From assembly GCA_040756875.1 (NCBI GenBank), contig JBFLYH010000006.1:1-12972 (forward strand): a stretch of DNA of 12,972 bases, read 5' to 3'. The notes under the pieces are model-generated. The model was not told the origin of the DNA. It saw only the letters and a list, made by a program, of their open reading frames with translations, and did not search any database. The stretch comes from a candidate division FCPU426 bacterium (lineage in GTDB: Bacteria; Oederibacteriota; JAAXVQ01; JAUVAV01). A program made the position numbers and the translations under genes. Shown in pieces: positions 3 through 12,971 of this stretch; position 1 is the first letter of the stretch; each line of letters opens with the position of its first letter.

Positions 3-3000
3 CGGCAGGTGGAAGAAGACCTGGTGAACCCGTACTTTGCGCTGATCCGCAACCGGAAGACGCCGTTGGAGAAGCTGCTGGCGGAGAACCAGAACATATT
101 GGCGTTGGCGCCGAACTTTCCGCAGGTAACAGAATCCGAGGCCATTCTCACCCCGGCCGATATTTCACAGCAGCCCGAAAACGTGCGTGTTTTTCTCGAT
201 CTCCTGCGCTTGGCTTTGCAGGAAACGGCGATAACCCGTTTGTTGAAAGATGGCACGACCGGGCTGGAAGCCCTTCAGGTTTCATCCGCGGAGGAGCTGG
301 CCGGGTACCCCTACCTGAACCAATTGGCCGTGGATTGGGCTCGCGCCGTAGGCCGGGACGGGGCGTACATCATTCCTTTTAAAAACATTTCGGTGGCAGT
401 GGTCATTCAGCCTAAAGGGGCGATGCCGGTCAGGACGGCCCTATTTCCGAGCCTGGAAAGCGAGTCGTTGCCCTTTGAAGTTGAAGTGGTGGGAACCAAA
501 GAAGCGGAAGAAATTCAGGAACAAATCCTGTCCGCAGGCGGCGCGCTGCGCGGGAACGAGGTGCGGACGGCATTGTTGTCCGAACCCCTTTCGCCCATGG
601 CAATCATGACTTCGATCGGCCTGGTTATGCTGGGCGCGCAAGCGACCGGATACGGATTGAACCGAAAACGCCTGCAATATTTGACCGGACTCCGGACGTA
701 TATCAGGGCGCAATGGACCGATCGTGAACGGCTGAAAATCATTGGCGCCGATTTTTTACGTCTGGGACTGGCATTGTTGGCCTTTGTTCTGCCAGTCATC
801 ACTTATCTGGCCGCGGGAATTAAATACCACATATTTGCCATGGACTTCCTAAAAACGCTTCCGGGCCTTGGGGAATTCATTGCCGGAATGCAGATGCTTC
901 TGCAGGGTGAGAGTTCGAATTTTTGGGTCAATGTGCTGTTTCAATATCATTTCACGGATATTATCATCATTCCCTCCACCTTGGCGGCATTTTACCAGTT
1001 GGTCGTTTCCTTTCCGGCTCGCATTCGAACCTGGGCGAATACGCTGTCCGTTCGGGAAAAAACCATGAACGCCCTCTTTGGGACGCTTTCCGTGTTTGGG
1101 GCGTTCTCGTTGGGAATTATGCTGCTTTTGACTGTGTTAACCAATCATCCGATGGTACTCGGGGCGATACTTTCCGGGTACCTGGCCTCCTTCATTCTGC
1201 GGCACATGAAACGGGAGGAGACTGCCGCAGCGCCAAGCAGCGAAGCGGCCACATATCGCGCCGGCGTGCAAAGGGCTTTGCGGGGATTGACAGTCTTCCT
1301 GATGATCGCGTACAGCTTGAACGAGCTTCTTGAAGGCCGGTTAAATCTTTTTAGCGGGACGTCGGATCCCGTGGATCTTTTTTTTATATTTGTTACGGGT
1401 TTGTTATCCTATCAGGTATTCAGGGGCTTGGCTTTTTTCACGCCTTTCGGGCGCGGCCAGGAAACGCTGCCCGCGGTTTTTGCAAGGCAGCAGACGCCTG
1501 ACGGACAAACGCGCATCAGCCTGGCTTATTTGTTGTATCTCCAAGCCTTCCGGCGCCAGTGGACCTCGCGGTTTTCCGGAATGATGAATATCAATATATT
1601 CAAGGACAACAGGCTTTCTGAACGATACGGCGAAGTCGGCCGGCGCTTCGGGTCCGTCTTGATCGAAATAAATAACCAACCCATTTCCGATGAAACCTGG
1701 CAACTGTTACTGGAGAATGAAAGCGTATTGTTGGAAGCCTCGCGACGGTTGGGAACAACCGAATGGGAAGAGATTCCTGAAGGTCAGGAAGGGAATGCCG
1801 CGCTGCGGGACGCGCTACATGAAATCATTAGGAAGGCTGAGCAACAACCGTTGGGCGTGGCTCAAGGGTCCAGTGGAGAGACAGCCGAAATGGCCGGAAT
1901 ATCACGGCGCCCGGTTGCTCCTGAAGTCAGGGCCGGCCCTTGGGGGCTTGGCAATCTGCGCCGAGGAATGCAAACCATATTCAATTTCATGCGCGCTCGT
2001 TTTACGGGGATTCTGCCCGATTCAGTACGCCCGGTCCACCGCGTCGCCCTTGCTTTCATTCATGCCCGGCAAGCGGAAGGCAAAATTCCTATGCAATCGG
2101 AAGTTGCTTTGTGGCTGCAAGCCCGGGGGTTTTCTGCGTCCGAGATAGACGCTTACTTTGCTTACCGGGTGCAAAGCGGATTGAACCAAGCGGGCGTGTC
2201 CGTGCATCCCTTCCGGGCTGCGCAAGGATACCGGGCCGCGGCCATCACCGCAGTCCTGAGCCTGGCGCTGGTGGGCGCCTCGTTTGTTTTTCAGTATGCC
2301 ATTCCGGATCTGACCTTCGCCTTGGAGATCATCGGCATCGCGGGCGTGGCGGCCGGAGGATATTTATCCATTGCGGCCCTGAATTATTGGAAACTTGCAC
2401 GGGCGGTCCGCGACGCCATGCTGGCCAGCCGCCTGGAAGAAATCTGGCAGACTGAACGTCATACACCGCATCCTGATTTTTTAACGCTGCGGGCCGACCG
2501 GAAAGCTTATCGTTTGTGGTTGAACGGCATTCCTTCCCAGCGGTTTCGCGAACTGAAAAGGCAGGCGAAAACGCAGGCGATCGCTTTGTCCGACGGCTGG
2601 GTGGACGCCGATGCCATGCGGATCTTGGAAGGGGAACAGCCGTATTATGCCCAGCAGGTGAGACGGCATGAACGCTATCGGAATGAATTCGCGGCCATGC
2701 TGGCATTGCTCCCGACCTTCAACCTATTGCGGGCCTGGTTGCGGACTTGGGGCCAGGCCAGAAAGCAGGTCACCACCCCGAGCCAGGGGGCGCGTTTGGC
2801 TTTTTCCCTGGTGATGACCGTTTTATCCATGATTACCTTCCTGGCGGCTTTCGGCGTCTGGACCTATTTCCTCGTTTATAACACCGTGCAAAATCTCCGC
2901 CGCGAACGGGATCAGACCGCCTTCCGGCAACCCACGAATGTCCTGGCGCCGGTCCTGGAAAAGACCAGCGACATTATCCCCCTGCTGGGGGCTTATTATC

Positions 3001-6000
3001 CGGTCGGCGCAACCATGCGCATGCAGGGCGACAATTTTATCATCACTGCGGATCCGAACCACCAGCAAACGTTCGGGTCGGTCATTTTAAACAACAACCG
3101 CAGCATCACCGTGGATTTCAACCAGAAGGACGTTTTGGTTGATCTGGACGTGGTCTCAACCACGCATGACTGGTTTTTCATCGTCTACAACGCGGAGTTC
3201 CCGGACGGATACCTGAAATTGCAGCCTGACACCCGCTATACCGGCCAGCTCCGGTTCCGCTTGAGCGACCTGGGGCTGACCGGCGTGCGCGAACTGCGCT
3301 TCGAAGCCGGCATCAGCTCCTACCCGAAGCCGATTAACGCCCAAAAAACCCAGGTGGTCTTCAATGCCAAGAACAGCCGGATCCTGGTGGTGGACCGCCA
3401 GCCGGCGGAGGCCCTGGCTGCCCGCAAGCCGATCACCGTGGCGCCGCATGCCTCGCTGACCGTCGGGGGCATTAAATCCGTGGCTGAAGCGCAGGCGATC
3501 CGCGACCATGCGCAGGAGTGGGCCCGCAAAGAAGGTCCGAAGATCATTCCGCATGCCGTGTGGTGGTACACCATGGATCCCAACTACCGTCCTGCTGACG
3601 AGACCGATCAGTGGGGATGGTTTGCGTTCAACCACCATCCGGACCGCGATCCCAAAAACATTGCTTCCGTGCATCATCCGCTCTTGGGTGATTTCACTTC
3701 GGCGGATCCGGAATACATCCGCTGGCTGATTCGCACTTCCAAGGCCATGGGGTTGAACGGATTCAGCATTGATTACTACGCCGAAAAACGGCCCTATGAA
3801 AAACAGTTACCCACGCTATTCCGGATTGCCGAGCAGGAAGGCAACTTCACGCTTTCCCTCATGTACGAGACGCGTTTGGCCAAAAACGCCGAGGGCAAGC
3901 CGGATCCCGAGTTGATGAAGCAGCACATCCGCCACATTCTCGATACGTACGCCACCAGCCCGGCTTTCCAGCGCCTGGGGGGCGTTCCGGTCGTTTACCT
4001 TTTTGGCATGCTGTCCACGGGGTTTTATCCCTGGGACTACGAGCGGGTGATCCGGGAATTGGAAGCCGAAGGGTATGTGTTCATCCTGATCGGGGATTCC
4101 ACGGTGCACCCGGCCTATTACAAAGTGATGAACGGGCTGCATGAATGGATCAACATGGGGACTTTCCTGCGCAGCCAAAAAGCCACTTATTGGCAATTGC
4201 ATCCCGACCAGTGGGAACAGAACGCGCGGAGCTGGCTCTATAAAGTCATGGCCACCCATCCCAATTTGTTTTCCGTCGCTTCCATATACGGCGAATTCGA
4301 CGACCGGGAGCTGGGCGGCGGGGATTGGGGGCGGGGAACCGTGCGGCGCCTTAAGCCGACCGGCGGCAGTACGGTGGAAGCCGGCAACGTCCTGAAAAGC
4401 ACGATTGATTATGCGGTCAACAACGCGGATAAACTGCTGTGGGCCAAACTGATGACTTGGGACGATTGGAACGAAGGCACGGAAATGGAACCTTCCTTGG
4501 AAAAGGGGTTTTCGAGTTTCTTTGCGGTGATGGAATTTTCCGCGCGCTACCGCGGTTATCAAACCGATCCAGGGGCTGTGTTGGATTTGACCGAAGCCTA
4601 CCTGAAGGCGAAGCACGGCGGCCGGATTCCGGCCGAGGCGCAGGCTGTGCTGGACCAGGCCCGGGCCTATTTGCCCACGGTACGGGCCAATATCCGCAAG
4701 GGGATCCAGGAATATCAAGCCCGGCAAACAAGCCAGACCCAGCCGCAGGCCACCCCCACGCCGCACCGGTTCAGGGCAGTCATCGGTTACGTTGCTTCTG
4801 CGGTGACCGGGACGATCAGCCTGGCTCTCATGGGTTTGGGCGCCGCTACGCTGGGAATGGCAACGCAGGGAGGTTCGCTGTTCATTCTTTGGCCGTTGCT
4901 GGCGCTGGTCGGCGGCGGATACCTGGCCTGGGGTGCGGTGAGTTTCTTCCGGACCGGCCGAGCGGTGGAAGAAGCCATGGGCGGCGTTTTGTTGGAGCGG
5001 TACTACGAGTCCCGCGCCGGTCCCCAGGCGCCGGCTTTTTCGGAATTGACCCGGGATCCGCTCGCGTTTTCCGGGTGGCTGGAAAGCCTGCCGGGCACAG
5101 TGGTGAACGGCATCCGTCAGCAAGCCCGCGACGAAGCCATTGCCTGGTCGGATGGACGCATAAACGAGGCGGCGATGGCCGCTTTAAAGAAAAACGATCC
5201 CCGCGCCGCGGCCCAGGTGCGGTGGCACGAATCATTCCGCCGCGAGCTTCCCGGCCTGCTGGCCATGCTGCCGGGGGTGCGAAGTGTTTTGCGCCGGGAA
5301 CAAGTGGATTCGGAAATTGCGCCGGGAAGCGGGAAGGATTCACGCAATGCGCTTAGGTCCCTATTGAGCTTGAATCCCTGGGAAAGACGGGCTGCCATTC
5401 GGAAAGCCGGCGAAACTAACGACTTGGAGATTGCCCTGGAGATTAAAAAAATGCGCCCCCAAGCCGGGTGGCACGGAGGTATGCTCGACGACTTGTTTTA
5501 TTGGATTACCAGAGAAAAAGCGCATATCACGGGTTCGAAATTGGGCATTACCCGCAAGGGGGGACGAACGAGGAATTTAATGAAGCATCTTCATAATTTA
5601 TGGCCGGAATTGAATCGGCGTTTCCCCGGGCAGATTCTAAAAGTTCGCGATGAAGGCGCCTCTACCGGTGTTGTAAGCAGCGAACTTTTCGGAAAGTTGG
5701 AGGTTTTTACCGAAGGAAAGCTGGATTATACCGCGACTGACCTTGTGACCAAACTGTTCTTCATACGCAACGACAAAGAGGGGATTTTGGCGGTATTTAG
5801 TGACACGACTGACACGAACGATGCTCTGCTGCAAATAAAATATAATGGGCGGATATACTACCGCTCCGCCGCAGACGGGAAGTTTCATTTGCCTGTTCAG
5901 CAACCGGAGTCTCGTGCGGATGAGTTGAAGGCGGTTTTCGAAGAATACCGGGAGACCGGCAAGATCCTGCCGGGCTACAGAATCGAAGAGGTGGGGGCGC

Positions 6001-9000
6001 AGGATCATCAAGTGGAAGAGATGGCGAACGCTGATCCGAGATTCCACATTCAGCAGCATGATATTTTTACGCCTATCCCTGAAGCGCAGCGCGGGCACTT
6101 GACTATTCTGTCAAATGTTTTGGTTCCAAAGTACTATACCCGGGCAGACTCCATACGGGCTTTAAGGCAAGTCGGCAGGAATATGCTGGATAAAGGGTTG
6201 CTATTAGTCGTAAACGAGTTTAACTATCGGGATTTTCATAAAATGTTGCCCACCCGCGACCATTATTACACGGTATTCGAAAAGCGGGGCGAACAACTCG
6301 TTGCTATTGATTGGGTAAACAAGGAAAACAAGCTTTGGGCAGGCGGATTTCGCTTTGAGACGCCTGAGGCTATGATCCGCGTGATCGACCTGCAGGAGCC
6401 GTTTGTAGCAGGGCAAACGGACATGGCCGAAGAAGAACAAGCGGCGGGTGCGATAAGCAGCCAGGAGGAAGCCCATCCCTTCCGGGCCCTGAGCGGTTAT
6501 ACGGCTGCGGTGCTTTCCGGCCTGCTCAGCGCGGCTTTGCTGGGCATTGGTTTTGCCACCGGCAGCATGCTGCCCGCTTGGAACACCTGGGCCGCGCTTT
6601 TACCGGTTGCGGCTTTGTTTGGCGGTGCGTATTTCACCGCCGGCACGGTGACTTTTTACCGCCTCAGCCGGGGCGTGCAGAGGGCGATGAGGGAGGCGGC
6701 TTTACAAAGGCTGTACACTGCACAGGCCGCGCCCGGAAGCCCGACCTTCGCCGAGTTGCGAAATGCTCCCCGCAGTTATCAGGCCTGGATTGACAGCCTG
6801 CCGAAACAGGATCTGGCGGCCATCCGCCGGCAAGCCCTGACTGCGGCCATTGCCTGGTCAGACGGCCGGGTGGATGCCAGAGCCATGGCCATTCTGGACC
6901 GCGACCAGCCCGAGGTGGCCAATCGCATCCGCTTCCATGAAACACTGCGCAATGACGTGGTGGGTTACCTGGCCCTGCTGCCGGGATTTTACCGCTTATT
7001 CGGCTTGCCGCGGTATATGCCCGAAGTCCTTCCCTTGCCGGCGGCGCTGGTCCGCGAGACCCGCGATTTGAGCGAAGGCGACCGCCGGATTCTGCGCACG
7101 GTCTTCCAGCACGGAGCGATTTCCACCCTGGTCACCTTGCCTTTGAGCCGCATCCGCCGCGCAGCGGCCCAAAGCCTGATCCGCAGCCTGGGTCCGGTTT
7201 TTTTGCTGACCTACACCTTTATTGCCCGGCATGTGGTGGGGTTGCCGCGCACTGAAGTCTTCCTTGATATATACCAGTTCGACGCAGCGCGGCGGTATGG
7301 GGACAAAGGCCTCCTGGACATCACCACCATGCATGCGGATTTCGGGACCGGCAAGGCGCCTGTCAATGCCGAACTCTTCTATCGCACCCTCAACCACCGC
7401 TTCCGGCCCGAACAGCAGGCCAAGGTGATCCTGCACATCGAAACCCTCGACCGCTTCATCGACGATTTCGCGGCCCGAGAGGGGCTGGCCGGCCTGGAAC
7501 GCGAGGCAGTGCTGATGCGCATGGCCGAGCGGGCGCACGCCAATCACCTGCTGCTGCTGTTCGAACCCGTGCGCGTGCGCACGGCTAATTCCCAGGTGGA
7601 CCGGTTGCTGGCGGATGTCGAACGCATCCGCGCCTTGCGCCAGGCCTGGAAAGAAGCCCATCCGGGCCAAGCCCTGCCCGCGGCCATCGTATTCGACACC
7701 TGGCATTGGATCATCGACGGCTATCCGGAACTTCAACGGCGATTCCACCGGGTCCGCACCCAGGAAGAGCGCGACGCCATCCGCCTGGAGGTCCTGCACC
7801 GGCTGGAACAGGCCTTCCTTTCCATGGAGGACATGATCGCCTGGGTGCATTTCAGCAACGAGGACCAGCAAGTGCGGTCCTGGCGGTATTGGCTCCTGTA
7901 TCGCAGCCAGTTGTTCGGCGACCGGACGCTGATCCCCAACCTGCAGTGGCTGCGGTTCATCAATGAGCGCCGGCCGGATCTGCTGTACCGCATGACCTTC
8001 GAACTCAGTCCGGTGTATTTCGTGCGTTCGCTTTTCGGGTTCGACCGCTTTATCCGCCGCCTGGCGCGGCGGGCCGGCGACCTGGTCATGATGCTTTCGC
8101 CCGAAGAGGCCGAAAACCAGGCTGATCCAGTGCCCGCGCCCAAGCCGGGAGTGGCGCGCCCGAGCAGCCGGGACCTGCGGCCGGAGACCCTTGCAGACCC
8201 TGCGGACTCTGAATTGGTGCGGCAGCTGGTTTCGCAGGGGTCCATCTCGACCACCATTCTCTATCCTTTGAGCCGCTTCCCGCGGCTGGTCACGGCCGCG
8301 CTGGCGGCGCTGATTCTGCCGTTTTTCCGGACCTACGTCTGGTTTGCCCAGGCGTTTTTCGGCATCACGCGCCTGGAAATTTACGGCGACACCCTGCAGC
8401 TGGACCGGGCGCTGGCTGAGTATGCGCGCGGCCGGCTGCCCATGCGCTCGATCCACACGCAGATGCACCCCTATGCCATGGATTCGATCCGCCGCCTGGT
8501 GCAGCGCCCATGGACGCACCTGCAACCCGGCCGCTTGGTCATCCATTCCTCGGATCTTCAGCGCCTGCTGAAATACATCCAGCAGCACGAAGAATTGGAC
8601 AGCCCGGATCAGGCCATGCAGTGGCTGCTGTCCACGGCGGACCGCAACAACGTGCGCTTGATGATCGAGGCGCACAACTGGTACAACTTCAAGTTCAGGC
8701 TGCCGTACAGCCTCGAAGAGCAAATGGCGTTCGTCCGCTCCTGGCGGGAGCGCTACCAGCGGGACACAGGCCGCGCTCCGCCCATATTCATCCTTTTTGA
8801 TCCCTGGCATTACATCCACGAAGAACACCACGATTTGTACACCGCGTTCGCCCAGGCGCAGACGCCGGACGAAGTCCGCGCCATCCGCGCTCAGGCGTTC
8901 GATGCGGTGGCGGACTTTTTCGAGCAGCATATCGACATGATCGATTGGCTGCACCTCGCCAATACCGCTAATTTGGTTTGGGCTCCGGGCCAGGTCCGGC

Positions 9001-12000
9001 ACGGCAATGCCATGTTCGGAAATGACACGCTCCTGCCGCTGCTCGACATTGTCCGCTATTTGCGCGACCGTCGGCCCGACCTGATGGATAAAACCACCTT
9101 GGAGTTCAATCCGGCCTATTGGGTGCGCAGCCTGTATGGGTTCGAGCGCCAGGTCCGGCTGACCGCGAGACGGCTGGAGGCTGAACGCCGGGGCATGGAC
9201 GCGCGGCCTTGGGTCCGTGCCTTGCGTCTGGCCCTGAGCCCGGACCGGACGCCCGCGGCCCGCGCCTTCATCGGCCGCGTGCTTTCGGTTTTATACGGCT
9301 GGACTAGGGAAACCGTAACGGATGTCGGAACCGTGGGCCAATGGGCAAGGGACTTCCAATCTGAACTTGAACAACAGGGATTTCCCAACCGGGCGCTGGC
9401 CGATATTGATTTCCTCGGCGATTTGCGGACGGACAGAGCCTGGCAGGTGCGGTTCAATGATTTGACGGCGAAGGTTTTTGAGGTGGTCAAGGGCTTCGAC
9501 GGGCGGCAGGCGTTTGTGGCCGGCCTCTACAACCGAGACCGTCAATTGGTCGGGCATGCGCTTTTCTTTGCCGAGGCCGGGCGGGAAGGGAGCGTGCAAT
9601 TCCGTTTCTCCATCCACGAAGCTTTCCGCAGCCGCAACCTGGGCACCCAGGCTCTGCGCATGCTCGCGACCCTGATTTGGCAAGGACAACTGTTCGACCG
9701 GCCGGTGGCCTCCATCGGATACTATACCTTTGCCGACGAAGGCCGGATCATGGTGTACGCCCTGAATTTCGGCGTGATCAGGCGCCTGCTGATGCGCTCG
9801 GGCTTTACGAACCAATTGCGGCTGGATTTGTCCAAATTCGCGTCCCTGGTCGCGCCCGCACCCGGTTTGGTGCGCTCCCGTCAGCTGGTGTTGGAACCCA
9901 GGCCGGAAACGGATTGGGCCAGTGAAATGGTGCTCAACCCGGGAATCATCCAGGACCGCCGCACGGGCAGGCTGCACATGCTGTTCCGCGCCACCGGCCC
10001 ATACGTGCAAAAACAGCTGCCGGGAAAACCCGCCCCCTTCCCGATCTTCCTGGGATACGCTTACAGCGACGACCAAGGACTGACGTGGCATGCGGACTTC
10101 TCGCGGCCGGCCCTGGCGCCCCGGCTCGAATACGCGCCGGAAGGGATTTTGATTGAAAACACGGCGGGCCAGCGCGTTCCCAATCACGCCAACGGTACCA
10201 TCGAGGACCCCCGCCTGTTTTACTTGCAGGGCAAAGCCTATCTGATTGCGGCCTGCCGCATGTTTCCGCCGGGCGCCTACTGGGCGAAAGAAGATCCCAC
10301 GCAGGCTTTGCCGGATTGGACGCAAACGCCCCAGAATCCCTACGGCCGGGCGGCCGCGGGCAACGTGACAGTCAATGTATTATTCGAAGTGGATCTGGAC
10401 GCGCTGGCAGCAGGCAATTATGAACGGGCGTTTGGATATGTCGGACGGCTCACGGACCCGGCTTTGGGAGAAAACCGGGACGTGGTGGTTTTCCCGGAAA
10501 AAATGATGATCAACGGCGAGCCGCAGATCGTGATGCTGCACCGGCCGGAAACGCCGGGCGGGACCCGGCGGCCTTCGATTTTCATCCGCGCGGCCCGGAC
10601 CTGGGAGGAGTTGGCTGTCCCTGAATCCGCGGCGACCCTTCTGGCTGAGCCTCGCTTCCCCTGGGAGCGGGAGCGCATCGGCGCGAGCGCGCCGCCCCTG
10701 CGCATTTCCCCGACTGAATGGCTTCTGAGCTACCACGGCAAGCAGGATGCCGCGGCCGGCTATTCGCAGTCGTTCATGATCCTGGAGGAACAGCCCAACG
10801 GCCTGCCCAGGGTCAAGCACCGCTGCCCGGAACAACTGCTGATCCCCCTGGCGGAATGGGAACAGCCGGGTAAATTCCGCACGCCCGTGCTGTTTGTGAC
10901 CGGCATGGCGCGCGTGGGGAATGAGCTGTTGCTTAGTTACGGCGCGGCGGACGAGAAAGCCGGCGTGGCGCGCTTGGATTACCAGGCCCTGTTGGACGTG
11001 GTGCGCCAATACGACGCGGACGGCAACCGCATGGGGCCAGGGCCCGGCGCTCCGCAAGGCCCGGCGCAGGGGCCGGGACCCGGCGGGGACATGAACGAGC
11101 ATTTGCGGCAGATGAAGGAAGTGCTGCCTGAGGGCGTAAACCGTCCGATCCGTGGCTTGCAGAGCCTGCCGGGGCGGCTGCTGGACTATGGGGTGAGGAC
11201 CGTTTTGTTCGTGACCGACGGACGCGGGATCGGGAACCTGAACCTGAAGCTGCCCATGCGTTCGCTAGCGGCGGTGGTGCTGGCAGGGTTGGCCCTGTTG
11301 CAGACCGTGGTGGCGGTGTTCGCCGGAGTCCGCGCCGACGCGACGGCCGTGGACGATCTCAGCCCGCGGTTTGAGGCGATCAAACGAACACTGGTGCTGC
11401 CGGACCGGATCACGGCGCGGGAATACAACGTGAAGCAGATCCGGTTCCGCCCCCTGTCGGAGCTGGGTGGTTTCTGGCAGCGGTTGTTGCGCGGGCAGTT
11501 GCTGGGTGCGTACCAGGAGAACGGCCAGGCAGCGGAACACGGGGAATGGGCCTCCATTTACGTGCCCAACCGGCTGCTGCTGCGGATGTCAGAGCCTATG
11601 CCTGCGGCGGACGGGACCCTGCGCTCGGCCATGTCCCGGCTGGGATACCGCGTAGAAGCCATGCTGTTCGGGGCGATTGTGGGGTACGAAGCTGAACAGT
11701 ATTACCAAGCCGGCCGGTGGGACGGGGTGGCTGAAACGTTCGGACTGACGCCCTCGCTGATCGATGCGGAGGCAGAAGCACCTGGGGTGGTGAATCTGCA
11801 AAGAGGAGTGCCTGCGTCCGAATGGCACCAGGCCACGCGCCAGAAAGTCGGCGTCACGGCCATGGAGCTGACCGGGTTGGTGGATGATTACCTGCGGGAA
11901 GCTGCGCAAGTGCGAAACCTGGGCGCGGACAAGAGCCTGCAGGCGCTGAAAGAGGCCCTGGGCCGGGAACTGGAGCAAGGCGCGGAGCCGAACTTGGCGA

Positions 12001-12971
12001 CCGTGATGCGGATTGCGTCGGGACTGCAGGGGGTATCGCCGGGCAGCCTGGCCGGGGTCTTGCGGGAGTTGACGCGCGAAGGGCAGGAGTTGAGCGGCGA
12101 GGCGAGGCAATTGGTGGCCAACGGAGTGGTCGGCCGCCTGATCACCGGGGAACAGGTGGCGGCCGGCCGCGCGGGATCGAGGGGAGTGGAGACGGCGGTA
12201 GCAGTGGCCGGGCAGGAGGTTTATGTGCAATCCATGCCGGCGGCAAACCGCGCGCAACTGGCGGCGGTCAGGGAAGCCCTGTCAGGTTTGCGCGGCCAGA
12301 GTGGCGTGGAGGGGCTGATCAGCCGGCTGGAACTGGCGGAGCGCGTGCTGACGGCAATAAGCGGCGTGTCGCCAGGAAGGCTGGGGCTGTTGGACGAGGC
12401 GACGGGCCTGGCGCTGCGCGGAGAAGTGGGACAACAGGCACGCAGCGAGCAGGCGGAATTGTTGATGATCGGCGAGGACCTGTCGCGCAATGTCCACGGC
12501 GTGAAGACCGGCCGGGTAACAACCGTGGAGATGGAGGGGGTGGAGCTGGCGAATCCACAGGTGTTTGAAGTGTCGGCTCCGGTCCAACAGGCGTTGGAGG
12601 CAGCGGACATACTGAAGGCTGAACTGCCTGAAAATGTCGTGGCGCGGGTGTATGGCGGAGAAGTGGAACAGATGATGCCGGCGCCGAAAGCGCGGCTGGG
12701 GCTGATGGCGCGGCTGATGCGTCTGATGCCGTCGCGGCGCATGCAGCAGATGGCAATGAGGCTGGATCCCATGGGTTACTGGCAGAGCGTGGTGGGAGGG
12801 TTGGGCCTGAGCGAGACGGCGTTCGGCGCGCTGCTGCAGCGCGGCGACAGCCCGATCGTGCAGGCGTACCTGAGGTACGCGGCCAGGCCGGAAAGCCGGA
12901 AGGCGGAGCGCGACCTGATGAAAGCCATGCTGCGCGCCTTGAAAGCCGAGGGCGAGAAGGCGCAGACCGCG
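3..12971 (+). CDS. Giant multidomain membrane-associated protein, partial at both ends (at least 4,323 aa)
   Basis: Frame +3 reads RQVEEDLVNPYFALIRNRKTPLEKLL... through to ...LMKAMLRALKAEGEKAQTA with no TAA/TAG/TGA found. The ORF track lists no frame +3 ORF, consistent with the absence of an in-window stop. Several recognisable enzyme motifs fall in this frame. Confidence 0.96.
585..1430 (+). other. Polytopic membrane domain (about 6-7 hydrophobic helices); C-terminal part weakly resembles VanZ-like/DUF2809 membrane proteins
   Basis: Hydrophobic stretches: MAIMTSIGLVMLGA, LGLALLAFVLPVITYLAAGI, IIIIPSTLAAFYQLVVSF, LFGTLSVFGAFSLGIMLLLTVL, MVLGAILSGYLASFIL, GLTVFLMIAYSL, LFFIFVTGLLSYQVF. The segment NELLEG...SGTSDPVDLFFIFVTG recalls the E...GTFDxxD pattern of those families; that family call is tentative. 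Confidence 0.6.
2205..2714 (+). repeat. 170-aa intragenic protein repeat, copy 1 (two-TM hairpin plus helical region with HE motif)
   Basis: HPFRAAQGY...SLALVG...GGY...RAVRDAM...PDFLTL...WLNGIP...RQAKTQAIALSDGWVDADAMRIL...QVRRHERYRNE...LALLP; aligns without gaps to copies 2 and 3. Confidence 0.92.
2790..2882 (+). other. Single transmembrane helix preceding the glycoside hydrolase module
   Basis: ARLAFSLVMTVLSMITFLAAFGVWTYFLVYN, a long uncharged hydrophobic stretch. Confidence 0.75.
2990..3395 (+). other. Beta-rich domain, probable beta-sandwich / carbohydrate-binding-module-like
   Basis: Alternating hydrophobic strands (FIITAD, FGSVIL, ITVDF, VLVDLDVV, WFFIVYN, LRFRL, LRFEAGI, QVVFN) immediately N-terminal to a glycoside hydrolase domain. 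Confidence 0.5.
3540..4560 (+). other. GH99/GH71-like glycoside hydrolase domain (endo-alpha-mannosidase-like TIM barrel)
   Basis: IIPHAVWWY; IASVHHPLLGDFTSADPEYIRWLIRTSKAMGLNGFSIDYY (cf. GH99 YPxLGxYSSxDP...AGID); LSLMYE; YATSPAFQRLGGVPVVYLF; EFDDR; TWDDWNEGTEMEPS at 4455-4496 (cf. GH99 TSFNEWHEGTQIEP). Confidence 0.85.
4764..5273 (+). repeat. 170-aa intragenic protein repeat, copy 2
   Basis: HRFRAVIGY...SLALMG...GGGY...RAVEEAM...PAFSEL...WLESLP...QQARDEAIAWSDGRINEAAMAAL...QVRWHESFRRE...LAMLP. Confidence 0.92.
5520..6330 (+). other. Class I SAM-dependent methyltransferase domain, CheR-like
   Basis: Motif I LKVRDEGASTG (D at 5649), motif II YTATDL, then FHIQQHDIF and LTILSNVLVPKYY...ALRQVGRNMLDKGLLLVVN. 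The order matches the CheR-type pattern GCSTG / ATDI / FxxHNL / CRNVLIYF / LxxGGxL. Confidence 0.7.
6474..6983 (+). repeat. 170-aa intragenic protein repeat, copy 3
   Basis: HPFRALSGY...SAALLG...GGAY...RGVQRAM...PTFAEL...WIDSLP...RQALTAAIAWSDGRVDARAMAIL...RIRFHETLRND...LALLP. Confidence 0.92.
7080..8072 (+). other. Xylose isomerase-like / AP endonuclease 2 family TIM-barrel domain, tandem copy A
   Basis: Strand-end motifs in the expected order: GAIST, TEVF, TTMHAD, VILHIE, LLLFEP, IVFDTWH, IAWVHFSN, MTFELSP (cf. family xxEN, DxxH, HxxD, xxE metal ligands). Confidence 0.7.
8205..9173 (+). other. Xylose isomerase-like / AP endonuclease 2 family TIM-barrel domain, tandem copy B
   Basis: GSIST, LEIY, RSIHTQ, LVIHSS, LMIEAHN, ILFDPWH, IDWLHLAN, RHG, TTLEFNP. 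Colinear with copy A, e.g. RRPDLLYRMTFELSPVYFVRSLFGFDR versus RRPDLMDKTTLEFNPAYWVRSLYGFER. Confidence 0.72.
9420..9815 (+). other. GNAT-family N-acetyltransferase domain
   Basis: AFVAGLYNRDRQLVGHALF strand pair, motif A FSIHEAFRSRNLGTQALRML (R-x-x-N/G-x-G acetyl-CoA loop), and C-terminal RRLLMRSGF. Confidence 0.7.
9870..11015 (+). other. GH130-family glycoside phosphorylase/hydrolase (five-bladed beta-propeller; beta-mannoside-active family)
   Basis: VLEP...WASEMVLNPG, MLFRA, LGYAYSDDQGLTW, IEDPRL (EDPR at 10203-10214), NRDVVVFPEK, MLHRP, WERERIGASAPP, WLLSYHG, WEQPG...VLFVTG, LSYGAADEKAGVA. Confidence 0.92.
11034..11090 (+). other. Gly/Pro-rich low-complexity linker
   Basis: GPGPGAPQGPAQGPGPGGD separating the GH130 domain from the final region. 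Confidence 0.8.
11091..12971 (+). other. Unassigned Ala/Gly/Glu/Leu-rich, probably helical region with one hydrophobic helix (about 11265-11330)
   Basis: SLAAVVLAGLALLQTVVAVFAGV followed by about 550 aa with no recognised enzyme motif; G-rich sense strand. Confidence 0.5.

Follow-up and report, generated by a model that had tools for sequence, protein, structure and literature searches.

A giant open frame with a repeated 170-residue module

The window, by which we mean the whole 12,972-nt stretch of DNA analysed, carries an open frame of 4323 aa (3..12971, + strand, as are all features below) that is open at both ends. Comparison with relatives indicates that this frame is a fragment of a giant protein, its N-terminus short by ~430 aa and its C-terminus by ~100 aa: window aa 3-52 match aa 428-477 of the common N-terminal domain in P0003 at 64% identity, and the C-terminal tails of the relatives P0005 and P0007 extend past the window end. 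The genome has many ORFs >1500 aa, the longest reaching 12,551 aa.

Within aa 1-734 of the frame, a Pfam scan found no family, and a Kyte-Doolittle scan located a cluster of hydrophobic TM-like segments (732..1172, aa 244-390). The first module copy follows (2205..2714, aa 735-904) and consists of an HPFRA strand, TM1, a short loop, TM2 and a helical cap with the motifs AIALSDG and HERY...AMLALLP. An extra hydrophobic segment of 31 residues (2787..2879, aa 929-959) starts 25 aa past this copy, and a similar "third helix" is also present behind some modules of relatives. Downstream lie a GH99-like glycoside hydrolase core (3648..4034, aa 1216-1344), the second module copy (4764..5273, aa 1588-1757), a 400-aa cargo without family assignment (5274..6473, aa 1758-2157) and the third module copy (6474..6983, aa 2158-2327).

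The third copy precedes two tandem TIM-barrel-like units (7068..9221, aa ~2356-2693 and ~2700-3073), which were identified by a weak PF01261 match (23.9 bits, under the cut-off of 31.1), by resemblance to aa 5568-5899 (42%) and aa 5307-5910 (28%) of a frame on contig C4 of the same genome, and by a DNA repeat (D4) with a spacing of 1104 nt. A weak GNAT-like stretch (9492..9710; PF00583 E 0.09 and PF13302 E 0.14, both under cut-off) and a GH130 mannoside-phosphorylase-like domain (10476..11006, aa 3492-3668) come next. The frame ends in a conserved C-terminal region of the giant-protein family (11049..12971, aa 3683-4323), with a TM segment at 11256-11336 (aa 3752-3778; Kyte-Doolittle scan); this region is 78% identical to C4 aa 6172-6812 and 39-42% identical to the corresponding regions of P0005 and P0007.

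The three 510-nt copies align without gaps over 170 columns, as the initial annotation had claimed, and its consensus motifs are correct. Copies 2 and 3 are 34% and 37% identical to copy 1, and 44 columns are invariant across all three. At the DNA level the similarity left is one 48-nt seed at 75% (5111-5158 versus 6821-6868), and since its spacing of 1710 nt equals that of the module copies, we conclude that the copies are old. A profile made from these three alone recovered a fourth (G000:C4:2036-2545(-), E 3e-48) within a 6812-aa open frame on contig C4, and found no further copy among 26,522 six-frame ORFs (next best E 0.046), giving a genome total of four. The strict 170-aa length, by contrast, is limited to this genome and its close relatives; across 35 full instances the module spans 118-203 aa. 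The repeat is a genuine protein domain that had not been named before.

Family searches, distribution and neighbouring domains

The module had been described as unrecognised, and our searches bear this out. Against Pfam at E<=1, the four copies gave chance-level TM matches only; among 23 family members, at most three matched any one Pfam family (best E 0.018), and no NCBIfam family was matched by more than one member. The profile search of PDB sequences had a best E of 0.47, a Foldseek search with the predicted structure yielded 0 matches at E<=1e-3, and a wide VIA-align search gave a best Z of 6.8 with 0 chains at Z>=8, in which matches span residues 1-120 and barely sample the cap. Over the residues sampled, no fold match therefore rises above background.

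The module is also rare. It matches 26 of 1,835,955,588 representative proteins at E<=1e-3, nearly all of them long multi-domain proteins or pieces of such. In a survey of the phylum it occurred in 8/99 genomes, confined to two families of one order (5/10 genomes plus the present one in the first family, 2/4 in the second), and was absent from 85/85 genomes of the 21 other families. The same-genus genome G032 has no module, and of at least 11 paralogous giant ORFs in the present genome just 2 carry it; giant proteins of this kind therefore do not in general require it.

Several chains carry multiple copies: 3 in the window frame, 5 in a G027 ORF and up to 11 matches in G022. Together with small-residue motifs (G-G-x-Y) in TM2, this copy number would suit an assembly element, in which the hairpins of several modules, within or between chains, pack against each other within the membrane and so gather the cargos into a single assembly. 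We consider this decidedly improbable, because many proteins or fragments have a single copy.

The cargo labels given from sequence fared unevenly. GH99 (PF16317, 34 bits for the whole protein and 39.8 bits for the segment alone; cut-off 33) and GH130 (PF04041, E 1.5e-14, 54.1 bits; cut-off 26) are supported by Pfam, and the GH130-like domain also matches the NCBIfam beta-1,2-mannobiose phosphorylase at E 3.6e-21, yet far under the equivalog cut-off. The TIM and GNAT labels stay under Pfam cut-offs, and the methyltransferase label for aa 1758-2157 found no confirmation, as this stretch matched neither Pfam nor PDB sequences at E<=1.

Cargo identity and order both vary between relatives, so the fixed set and order of neighbours that would have refuted the initial annotation is not what is seen. 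In the close relative P0002, modules 2 and 3 are conserved (73% and 68% identity), and a HATPase_c domain takes the place of the 400-aa cargo of the window. The G027 ORF has the same cargo set in a permuted order, mod-TIM-mod-264aa-mod-GH99-mod-950aa-mod-GNAT-GH130, in which the TIM match is under cut-off (E 0.00024, 21.3 bits versus 31.1) and the GNAT match at the equivalent position is significant (PF13508, E 1.5e-8). Family-wide, the neighbours include GH99, TIM, GNAT, GH130, HATPase_c, PMI, MT+HD, aldose epimerase, Metallophos, DHDPS/epimerase, HEAT and beta-rich lipoprotein-like units.

Predicted hairpin, membrane topology and conserved polar residues

AlphaFold2, run on copy 2 with a 23-sequence alignment, returned a model with pLDDT 96.7 and pTM 0.89, comprising a strand at residues 2-4, helices at 5-30 and 38-84, a second strand at 125-128, and helices at 146-156 and 161-167. 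In the model the N-terminal HxFxA strand pairs with the AIAWSDG strand of the C-terminal helical cap. The module is accordingly predicted to be a two-TM-helix hairpin with a small cap. Lys or Arg residues occur in the TM1-TM2 loop of 4/35 instances, in the N flank of 29/35, and in the 15 residues past TM2 of 35/35 (mean 2.0); because of this bias, both module ends are probably cytoplasmic (N-in/C-in). Most instances have no other hydrophobic helix near either flank.

Our best reading, held with moderate confidence, is that the module is an autonomous domain that recurs between cargos and serves as a hairpin tether or linker. The two cytoplasmic ends of the hairpin would be clasped by pairing of the H-x-F-x-A strand with the A-I-A-W strand of a ~100-residue helical cap, which terminates in H-E-x-F...G-M-L-A-L-L-P. 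Since the chain would enter and leave on one membrane side, the domain could be inserted between any two soluble domains, and it would pin successive cargos (the GH99-like module, the 400-aa unit and the TIM/TIM/GNAT/GH130 block) to the inner membrane. Anchoring, one of the roles first suggested for the repeat, is the best supported, by the two TM helices and the Lys/Arg bias. The strict length is not a property of the family as a whole.

Topology counts against the tether. By a crude hydropathy count, the number of extra hydrophobic segments is odd in 11/20 inter-module intervals, including the interval between copies 1 and 2 of the window, via aa 929-959. If the hairpin is strictly in-out-in, modules that follow one another in the chain would therefore lie on opposite membrane sides. 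In P0003, P0004 and P0023, moreover, a charged stretch, a helix and then a lipobox-like L-x-G-C stand behind the module (4/35 instances).

Polar residues in and around the cap are strikingly constant among 47 distinct instances. His1 is present in 43/43 aligned instances, the Phe of H-x-F-x-A in 41/43, and His155 and Glu156 in 44/47 each, while the +6 position (residue 161) is Glu, His, Asp or Cys in 46/47 (E19/H16/D9/C2). The three degenerate copies without His-Glu also lack S-D-G and F3, and two of the three lack His1. This joint conservation and joint loss suggest a metal or active site, and the cap residues make up a putative metal-ligand-like set. A passive anchor would not need such conservation, which points to a function of the module's own. 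On the tether reading, His1, His155-Glu156 and the acidic, His or Cys residue at +6 may bind a metal and so lock the cap like a clasp, and may have a further activity.

The same residues can be read as a processing device. The giant chain would then be a polyprotein, and the module would mark or catalyse cleavage at its own boundary, with candidate cut sites just before His1 or after L-L-P-G, setting free enzyme units that stay anchored in the membrane; the H/H-E/[EHDC] set would then serve, in cis, as the site of a minimal metallohydrolase. We regard this as rather unlikely, although several observations fit it. Conservation peaks at the first (H-x-F-x-A) and last (G-M-L-A-x-L-P) residues of the module, the motifs are lost jointly in the degenerate copies, and an invariant Glu beside His, with two further ligand-type positions, is reminiscent of the mononuclear metal sites of enzymes. 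Separation of the units would also make it easier to account for the parity problem and for the internal, lipobox-like signal peptides, although lipobox cleavage would not fully solve the former. The residue preceding His1 is always small, but this may merely reflect linker composition, and database proteins read through the module in long open frames.

Zincin metallopeptidase sites, set in a fold of an active-site helix and a mixed sheet, consist of HExxH plus a third ligand (E/H/D) that varies between clans. The module shares with them an invariant His-Glu pair at a helix end and another ligand-type position, occupied by E, H, D or C depending on the sub-lineage, and differs in its spacing, H-E-x-x-x-x-[EHDC], and in an invariant His from the N-terminal strand. 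The 47 instances have no conserved His at +4 and hence no HExxH motif, and the module matched no peptidase family in Pfam or NCBIfam, which argues against processing; no peptidase was among the listed fold matches, in which the cap is barely sampled. West-Roberts et al. do consider cleavage of giant proteins possible, by C39/S8 peptidase domains (10.1101/2023.11.21.568195). The boldest form of the idea, which we hold to be improbable, makes each copy a membrane-embedded minimal metallohydrolase that would cut the chain at its own boundary via His1, His155-Glu156 and the +6 residue, so that a single giant gene would encode a bacterial polyprotein, from which enzymes and lipoproteins, each with its own anchor, would reach both membrane faces. 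If this is true, the parity paradox of the topology would disappear as well.

Alternatively, the cap site could act in trans at the membrane interface, binding or modifying a membrane-associated ligand such as a lipid-linked sugar or a metal ion in the service of carbohydrate-active cargos. The conserved polar site adjoins the membrane, and the cargo set centres on mannose and glycan metabolism: besides the GH99-like and GH130 domains, it includes PGM/PMM on C4, PMI in P0012, an aldose epimerase in P0021 and a GDP-mannose-dehydratase/epimerase-like cargo in P0020. The TM hairpin region of the GtrB glycosyltransferase gave a weak fold resemblance as well (Z 6.0 over 92 residues), within background. 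However, the module also flanks the non-carbohydrate domains HATPase_c, HD, HEAT and Metallophos, the searches brought up no homologous enzyme family, and Asp130 of S-D-G gives way to Asn or to other residues in a number of instances. We hold a role in trans to be quite unlikely.

Relation to giant proteins and other known systems

Generic two-TM hairpin anchors, such as class II holins (Pfam Phage_holin_3_6), resemble the module in that two TM helices are joined by a short loop and the two ends share one side. The module differs from them in its ~100-aa conserved cap, its N-terminal strand, its H, S-D-G and H-E motifs, and its position inside giant proteins. Sub-threshold matches to the class II holin-like family PF07332 occurred in 3/23 members at E<=1 (best E 0.018); no member reached the cut-off, copy 3 scoring 11.1 bits against a gathering cut-off of 28.4.

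C-terminal sorting signals of sortase, exosortase and archaeosortase systems comprise a short motif, a TM helix and a basic cluster. The module likewise has a motif, H-x-F-x-A-x-x-G, directly before TM1 and basic residues past its hydrophobic part, but its two helices and ~100-aa domain, internal and repeated, are not a single C-terminal TM. In viral polyproteins such as those of Flaviviridae, TM segments alternate with enzymes and set sidedness and processing. By analogy, the giant chain here may be likened to these in that membrane segments alternate with soluble enzymes along one long chain; there is no sequence relation, the host is bacterial, and polyprotein processing is hypothetical here.

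Giant genes in bacteria, with 10,000 to >100,000 codons, have recently become a puzzle. A close parallel to the present proteins is with the giant TM-anchored multi-enzyme proteins of Omnitrophota, for which two preprints, in the parts available, report GNAT, HATPase, methyltransferase and PGM/PMM content and count many TM helices, leaving organisation, insertion and possible cutting open (10.1101/2023.11.21.568195; 10.64898/2026.06.07.730766). As far as those parts describe them, they share with the window very long ORFs and many TM helices between the same enzyme types, glycoside hydrolases included; here, the ORFs are of 4323+ and 6812+ aa, with TM segments throughout and GH99, GH130 and PGM/PMM domains. 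The difference is that those parts treat the TM helices as generic anchors counted by predictors, whereas the present analysis delimits a specific, conserved domain family. In the passages that a term search finds in the two preprints, neither names such a domain, and "hairpin", "linker" and "cleav" have 0 occurrences in the available text of 10.64898/2026.06.07.730766.

As far as these searches extend, the module is the first defined recurrent linker unit in such giant proteins. It offers a confident structural model, a sharp set of motifs that can be mutated and a narrow phylogenetic range, and thus provides a handle for segmenting giant proteins, for testing their sidedness and for testing their polyprotein status. 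If the His/His-Glu/[EHDC] set is a metal or active site, the module would add a small metal domain of a new, membrane-associated kind.

The module and its predicted fold

The three copies of the module in the window (mod1, 2205-2714; mod2, 4764-5273; mod3, 6474-6983) align without gaps over 170 columns, with 34% and 37% identity to the first copy and 44 invariant positions. At the DNA level this similarity has nearly disappeared, leaving one 48-nt seed (75%) whose spacing of 1710 nt equals that of the copies. When a profile made from the three copies was run on the source genome (3.22 Mb, seven contigs), a fourth copy was found on contig C4 (2036-2545, minus strand; E = 3e-48), and nothing beyond these four was detected among 26,522 six-frame ORFs (next best E = 0.046). 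A broader family profile again returned only the four copies from this genome (next best E = 0.39). The strict length stressed by the initial annotation held at 170 aa in the source genome, in the database protein P0002 and in most copies of G027, another genome of the phylum, but lengths across the family range from 118 to 203 aa, and profile positions ~75-115 can be deleted or expanded. This makes the strict length a local property.

The impression that the repeat belongs to no recognised family was borne out by a Pfam search of the four copies, which found nothing real. Searches of 23 module members gave nothing real in Pfam, where at most 3 of the 23 had sub-threshold matches to a two-TM holin family, or in NCBIfam. 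The best match of the module profile to PDB sequences had an E-value of 0.47, and a search of the ESM Atlas yielded no usable match.

An initial AlphaFold2 model from the four local copies alone was mediocre (pLDDT 72), matched only generic helical bundles in Foldseek, and was replaced by one based on 23 diverse instances (pLDDT 96.7, pTM 0.89). In the latter, a strand at module residues 2-4 (the P-F-R of HPFRA) is followed by helix TM1 (residues 5-30), a loop, and helix TM2 (residues 38-84), which runs on into a stalk and is followed by short helices. The cap contains a second strand at residues 125-128 (A-I-A-W) leading into an S-D-G turn, a helix at residues 146-156 that ends with H-E, and a helix at residues 161-167 (G-M-L-A-L-L-P). 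The two strands, assigned by DSSP, are predicted to pair and would thereby clasp both ends of the hairpin into one small domain. Foldseek found no fold match for the 23-sequence model at E ≤ 1e-3. In an all-against-representatives comparison of structures the highest Z was 6.8, over the helical hairpin only, a background-level value for helical models with the cap barely sampled. The hairpins might also be bundled with one another, which would make the module an assembly element, a reading that we regard as quite unlikely.

Conserved positions, orientation and topology

Conservation was counted over 47 distinct module instances. His1 is present in all 43 instances that align at that position and Phe3 in 41 of 43, while Tyr53 is conserved in 45 of the 47, Ser129 in 37, Gly131 in 41, His155 and Glu156 in 44 each, and Gly164 and Pro170 in 46 each. 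Six residues beyond His155, 46 of 47 instances carry a residue of metal-ligand type (Glu 19, His 16, Asp 9, Cys 2). The H-E pair is missing from three copies, namely the third copy of P0003, P0009 and the module instance L016. S-D-G and Phe3 are gone from the same three copies and His1 from two of them, with the helices and G-M-L-A-L-L-P being retained. This co-loss is suggestive of one functional site that either binds metal or is catalytic, although the three events are few and depend on the phylogeny. The module probably has such a metal site, which would lock the clasp.

A site acting in trans at the membrane interface is an alternative that we judge to be improbable. The conserved site is not an HExxH motif. 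Site-2 proteases are characterised by HExxH and LDG motifs, and a site-2-protease-like reading was rejected because the motifs of the module are located outside its TM helices, and both their order (reversed) and their spacing differ.

Membrane orientation was assessed in 35 full instances. Lys or Arg is found in only 4 of these for the TM1-TM2 loop (mean 7.8 aa), compared with 29 for the eight residues N-terminal to TM1 and all 35 for the fifteen residues C-terminal to TM2 (mean 2.0). By the established positive-inside rule, this distribution of Lys and Arg would place both module ends and the cap in the cytoplasm.

Many modules are followed, after ~12-27 aa, by one extra hydrophobic segment (20-32 aa), for example at window aa 929-959, twice each in G027 and P0003, and in P0004, P0023 and the genome G022. 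A crude hydropathy count puts an odd number of such segments in 11 of 20 inter-module intervals. Should these be genuine single-pass export signals, it would be impossible for all consecutive in-out-in hairpins to face one side of the membrane. In 4 of 35 instances the segment ends with a lipobox-like L-x-G-C or S-S-C that precedes beta-rich units; the full series of basic stretch, hydrophobic helix, lipobox-like L-T-G-C or S-S-C and beta-rich units occurs in P0003 (aa 1180-1226 and 2289-2339), P0004 (aa 1067-1118) and P0023 (aa 560-570). These stretches look like internal lipoprotein signal peptides within the giant chain. It is possible that the extra segments are monotopic, that insertion is unconventional or that the chain is cut into units. 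Cutting would be in keeping with the module as a cis-processing element, which we consider a minority reading and unlikely, if less so than action in trans. No scheme for whole-chain topology from hydropathy and charge fitted all intervals, and West-Roberts et al. describe TM-based localisation as unreliable in such giant proteins (10.1101/2023.11.21.568195).

Cargo domains and the giant chain

In the window, mod1 is followed by the extra hydrophobic helix, a GH99-like domain, mod2, an unassigned segment of 400 aa and mod3, after which come two TIM-like units, a weak GNAT, GH130 and the family C-terminal region. The segment after mod2 (aa 1758-2157) had been annotated as a methyltransferase, a label that we dropped since neither Pfam nor PDB sequences gave a match at E ≤ 1. 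On C4 the order is TIM-like, module, C-terminal region. In P0002, mod2, mod3 and the sequence flanking them are preserved (73% and 68% identity), and HATPase_c takes the place of the 400-aa segment of the window. A 9482-aa ORF of G027 (module, TIM, module, 264 aa, module, GH99, module, 950 aa, module, GNAT, GH130) has the same cargo set as the window in permuted order. Other database proteins combine the module with GH99 before and PMI after it (P0012), a following methyltransferase and HD (P0024), a preceding GNAT (P0025), aldose epimerase (P0021) or Metallophos (P0015, copy 2), or a following DHDPS and epimerase (P0020), while P0003, P0004 and P0011 have beta-rich repeated units between modules. 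Across relatives, neither the neighbours nor their order are constant. The idea of the repeat as a scaffold is largely correct.

Two further features of the cargo were observed. The TIM-barrel-like unit of ~368 aa is duplicated in tandem at 7068-9221 (DNA seed spacing 1104 nt), and the hydrophobic helix at the start of each unit may be misread as a TM segment in hydropathy scans. The cargo also centres on mannose and glycans, comprising GH99-like, GH130 mannoside phosphorylase-like, PGM/PMM, phosphomannose isomerase, GDP-mannose-dehydratase/epimerase-like and aldose epimerase domains (window 3648-4034 and 10476-11006, the C4 ORF, P0012, P0020 and P0021).

The window makes up the whole of contig C6 (12,972 nt), and its frame 3..12971 (plus strand), uninterrupted throughout, encodes 4323 aa. 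Dozens of ORFs in this genome exceed 1500 aa, the longest reaching 12,551 aa, and pieces of giant genes make up four small contigs and several contig ends. Window aa 3-52 align with the last part of a ~450-aa N-terminal domain that is common to at least 10 other giant ORFs of the genome and to P0003, P0004 and P0008 (28-52% identity to these three). Such ORFs lie on C1 (375288-412940, 760691-787111, 1055290-1085400, 1533368-1537180), C2 (52442-60280, 60456-97805), C3 (389904-396647, 396737-415210) and C7 (2436-5843). The domain opens with a signal-peptide-like helix that has T/S-W-A at its end, and Pfam searches of P0003 and P0004 assigned it to no family. Among the giant ORFs of the genome, only the C6 (window) and C4 fragments carry the module.

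At the other end, the C-terminal 641 aa of the window ORF (11049-12971) share 78% identity with the end of the C4 ORF of 6812 aa (L005; 2-1924, minus strand), and the point at which each frame meets its contig end is homologous in the two. The first 67 codons of C7 (L008; 3-203) match the extreme C-terminus of P0005 and P0007. These features resemble an assembly break in a near-identical repeat common to two paralogous giant genes. Given the N-terminal alignment, the identity to the C4 end and the C7 tail match, the window protein is a nearly complete member of a paralogous giant-protein family, short of ~430 aa at the N-terminus and ~100 aa at the C-terminus. The C4 giant ORF (L005/L006) also contains two four-domain PGM/PMM enzymes (aa 49-746 and 3805-4502) that lie 3756 aa apart and are flanked by identical TM strings; this pair is a very large, recent internal duplication.

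Distribution and proposed role

Among 1,835,955,588 representative proteins searched with a profile, 26 matched at E ≤ 1e-3, of which 17 reached E ≤ 1e-10, and nearly all are long proteins or fragments of long proteins. Within the phylum, the module occurs in 8 of 99 genomes, counting the source genome, and these belong to two families of one order (five of ten plus the source genome in one, two of four in the other). It was absent from 85 genomes of 21 other families, a soft negative because incomplete assemblies can hide giant genes, and from the 100% complete genome G032 of the same genus. Module content differs sharply between close relatives, from none in G032 to five in one G027 ORF and 11 in G022, the last being matches of a shorter form (138-148 aa).

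Giant proteins of Omnitrophota are described as TM-rich and multi-enzyme with the same cargo types (10.1101/2023.11.21.568195; 10.64898/2026.06.07.730766). In the matched passages of both preprints the module domain is not described, although the supplements might list unnamed recurrent segments, and "hairpin", "linker" and "cleav" have no occurrences in the text of 10.64898/2026.06.07.730766. The giant-gene load and domain repertoire of the source genome are suggestive of Omnitrophota as well.

Taken together, the module is a real, rare, lineage-restricted and unnamed domain; its structural model is confident and its conserved site suggestive. Anchoring is its most likely role, and we lean towards an autonomous hairpin-plus-clasp domain through which one cargo after another of a giant multi-enzyme protein would be tethered to the membrane. 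The mannose- and glycan-centred cargo set suggests a membrane-tethered mannoside salvage line.
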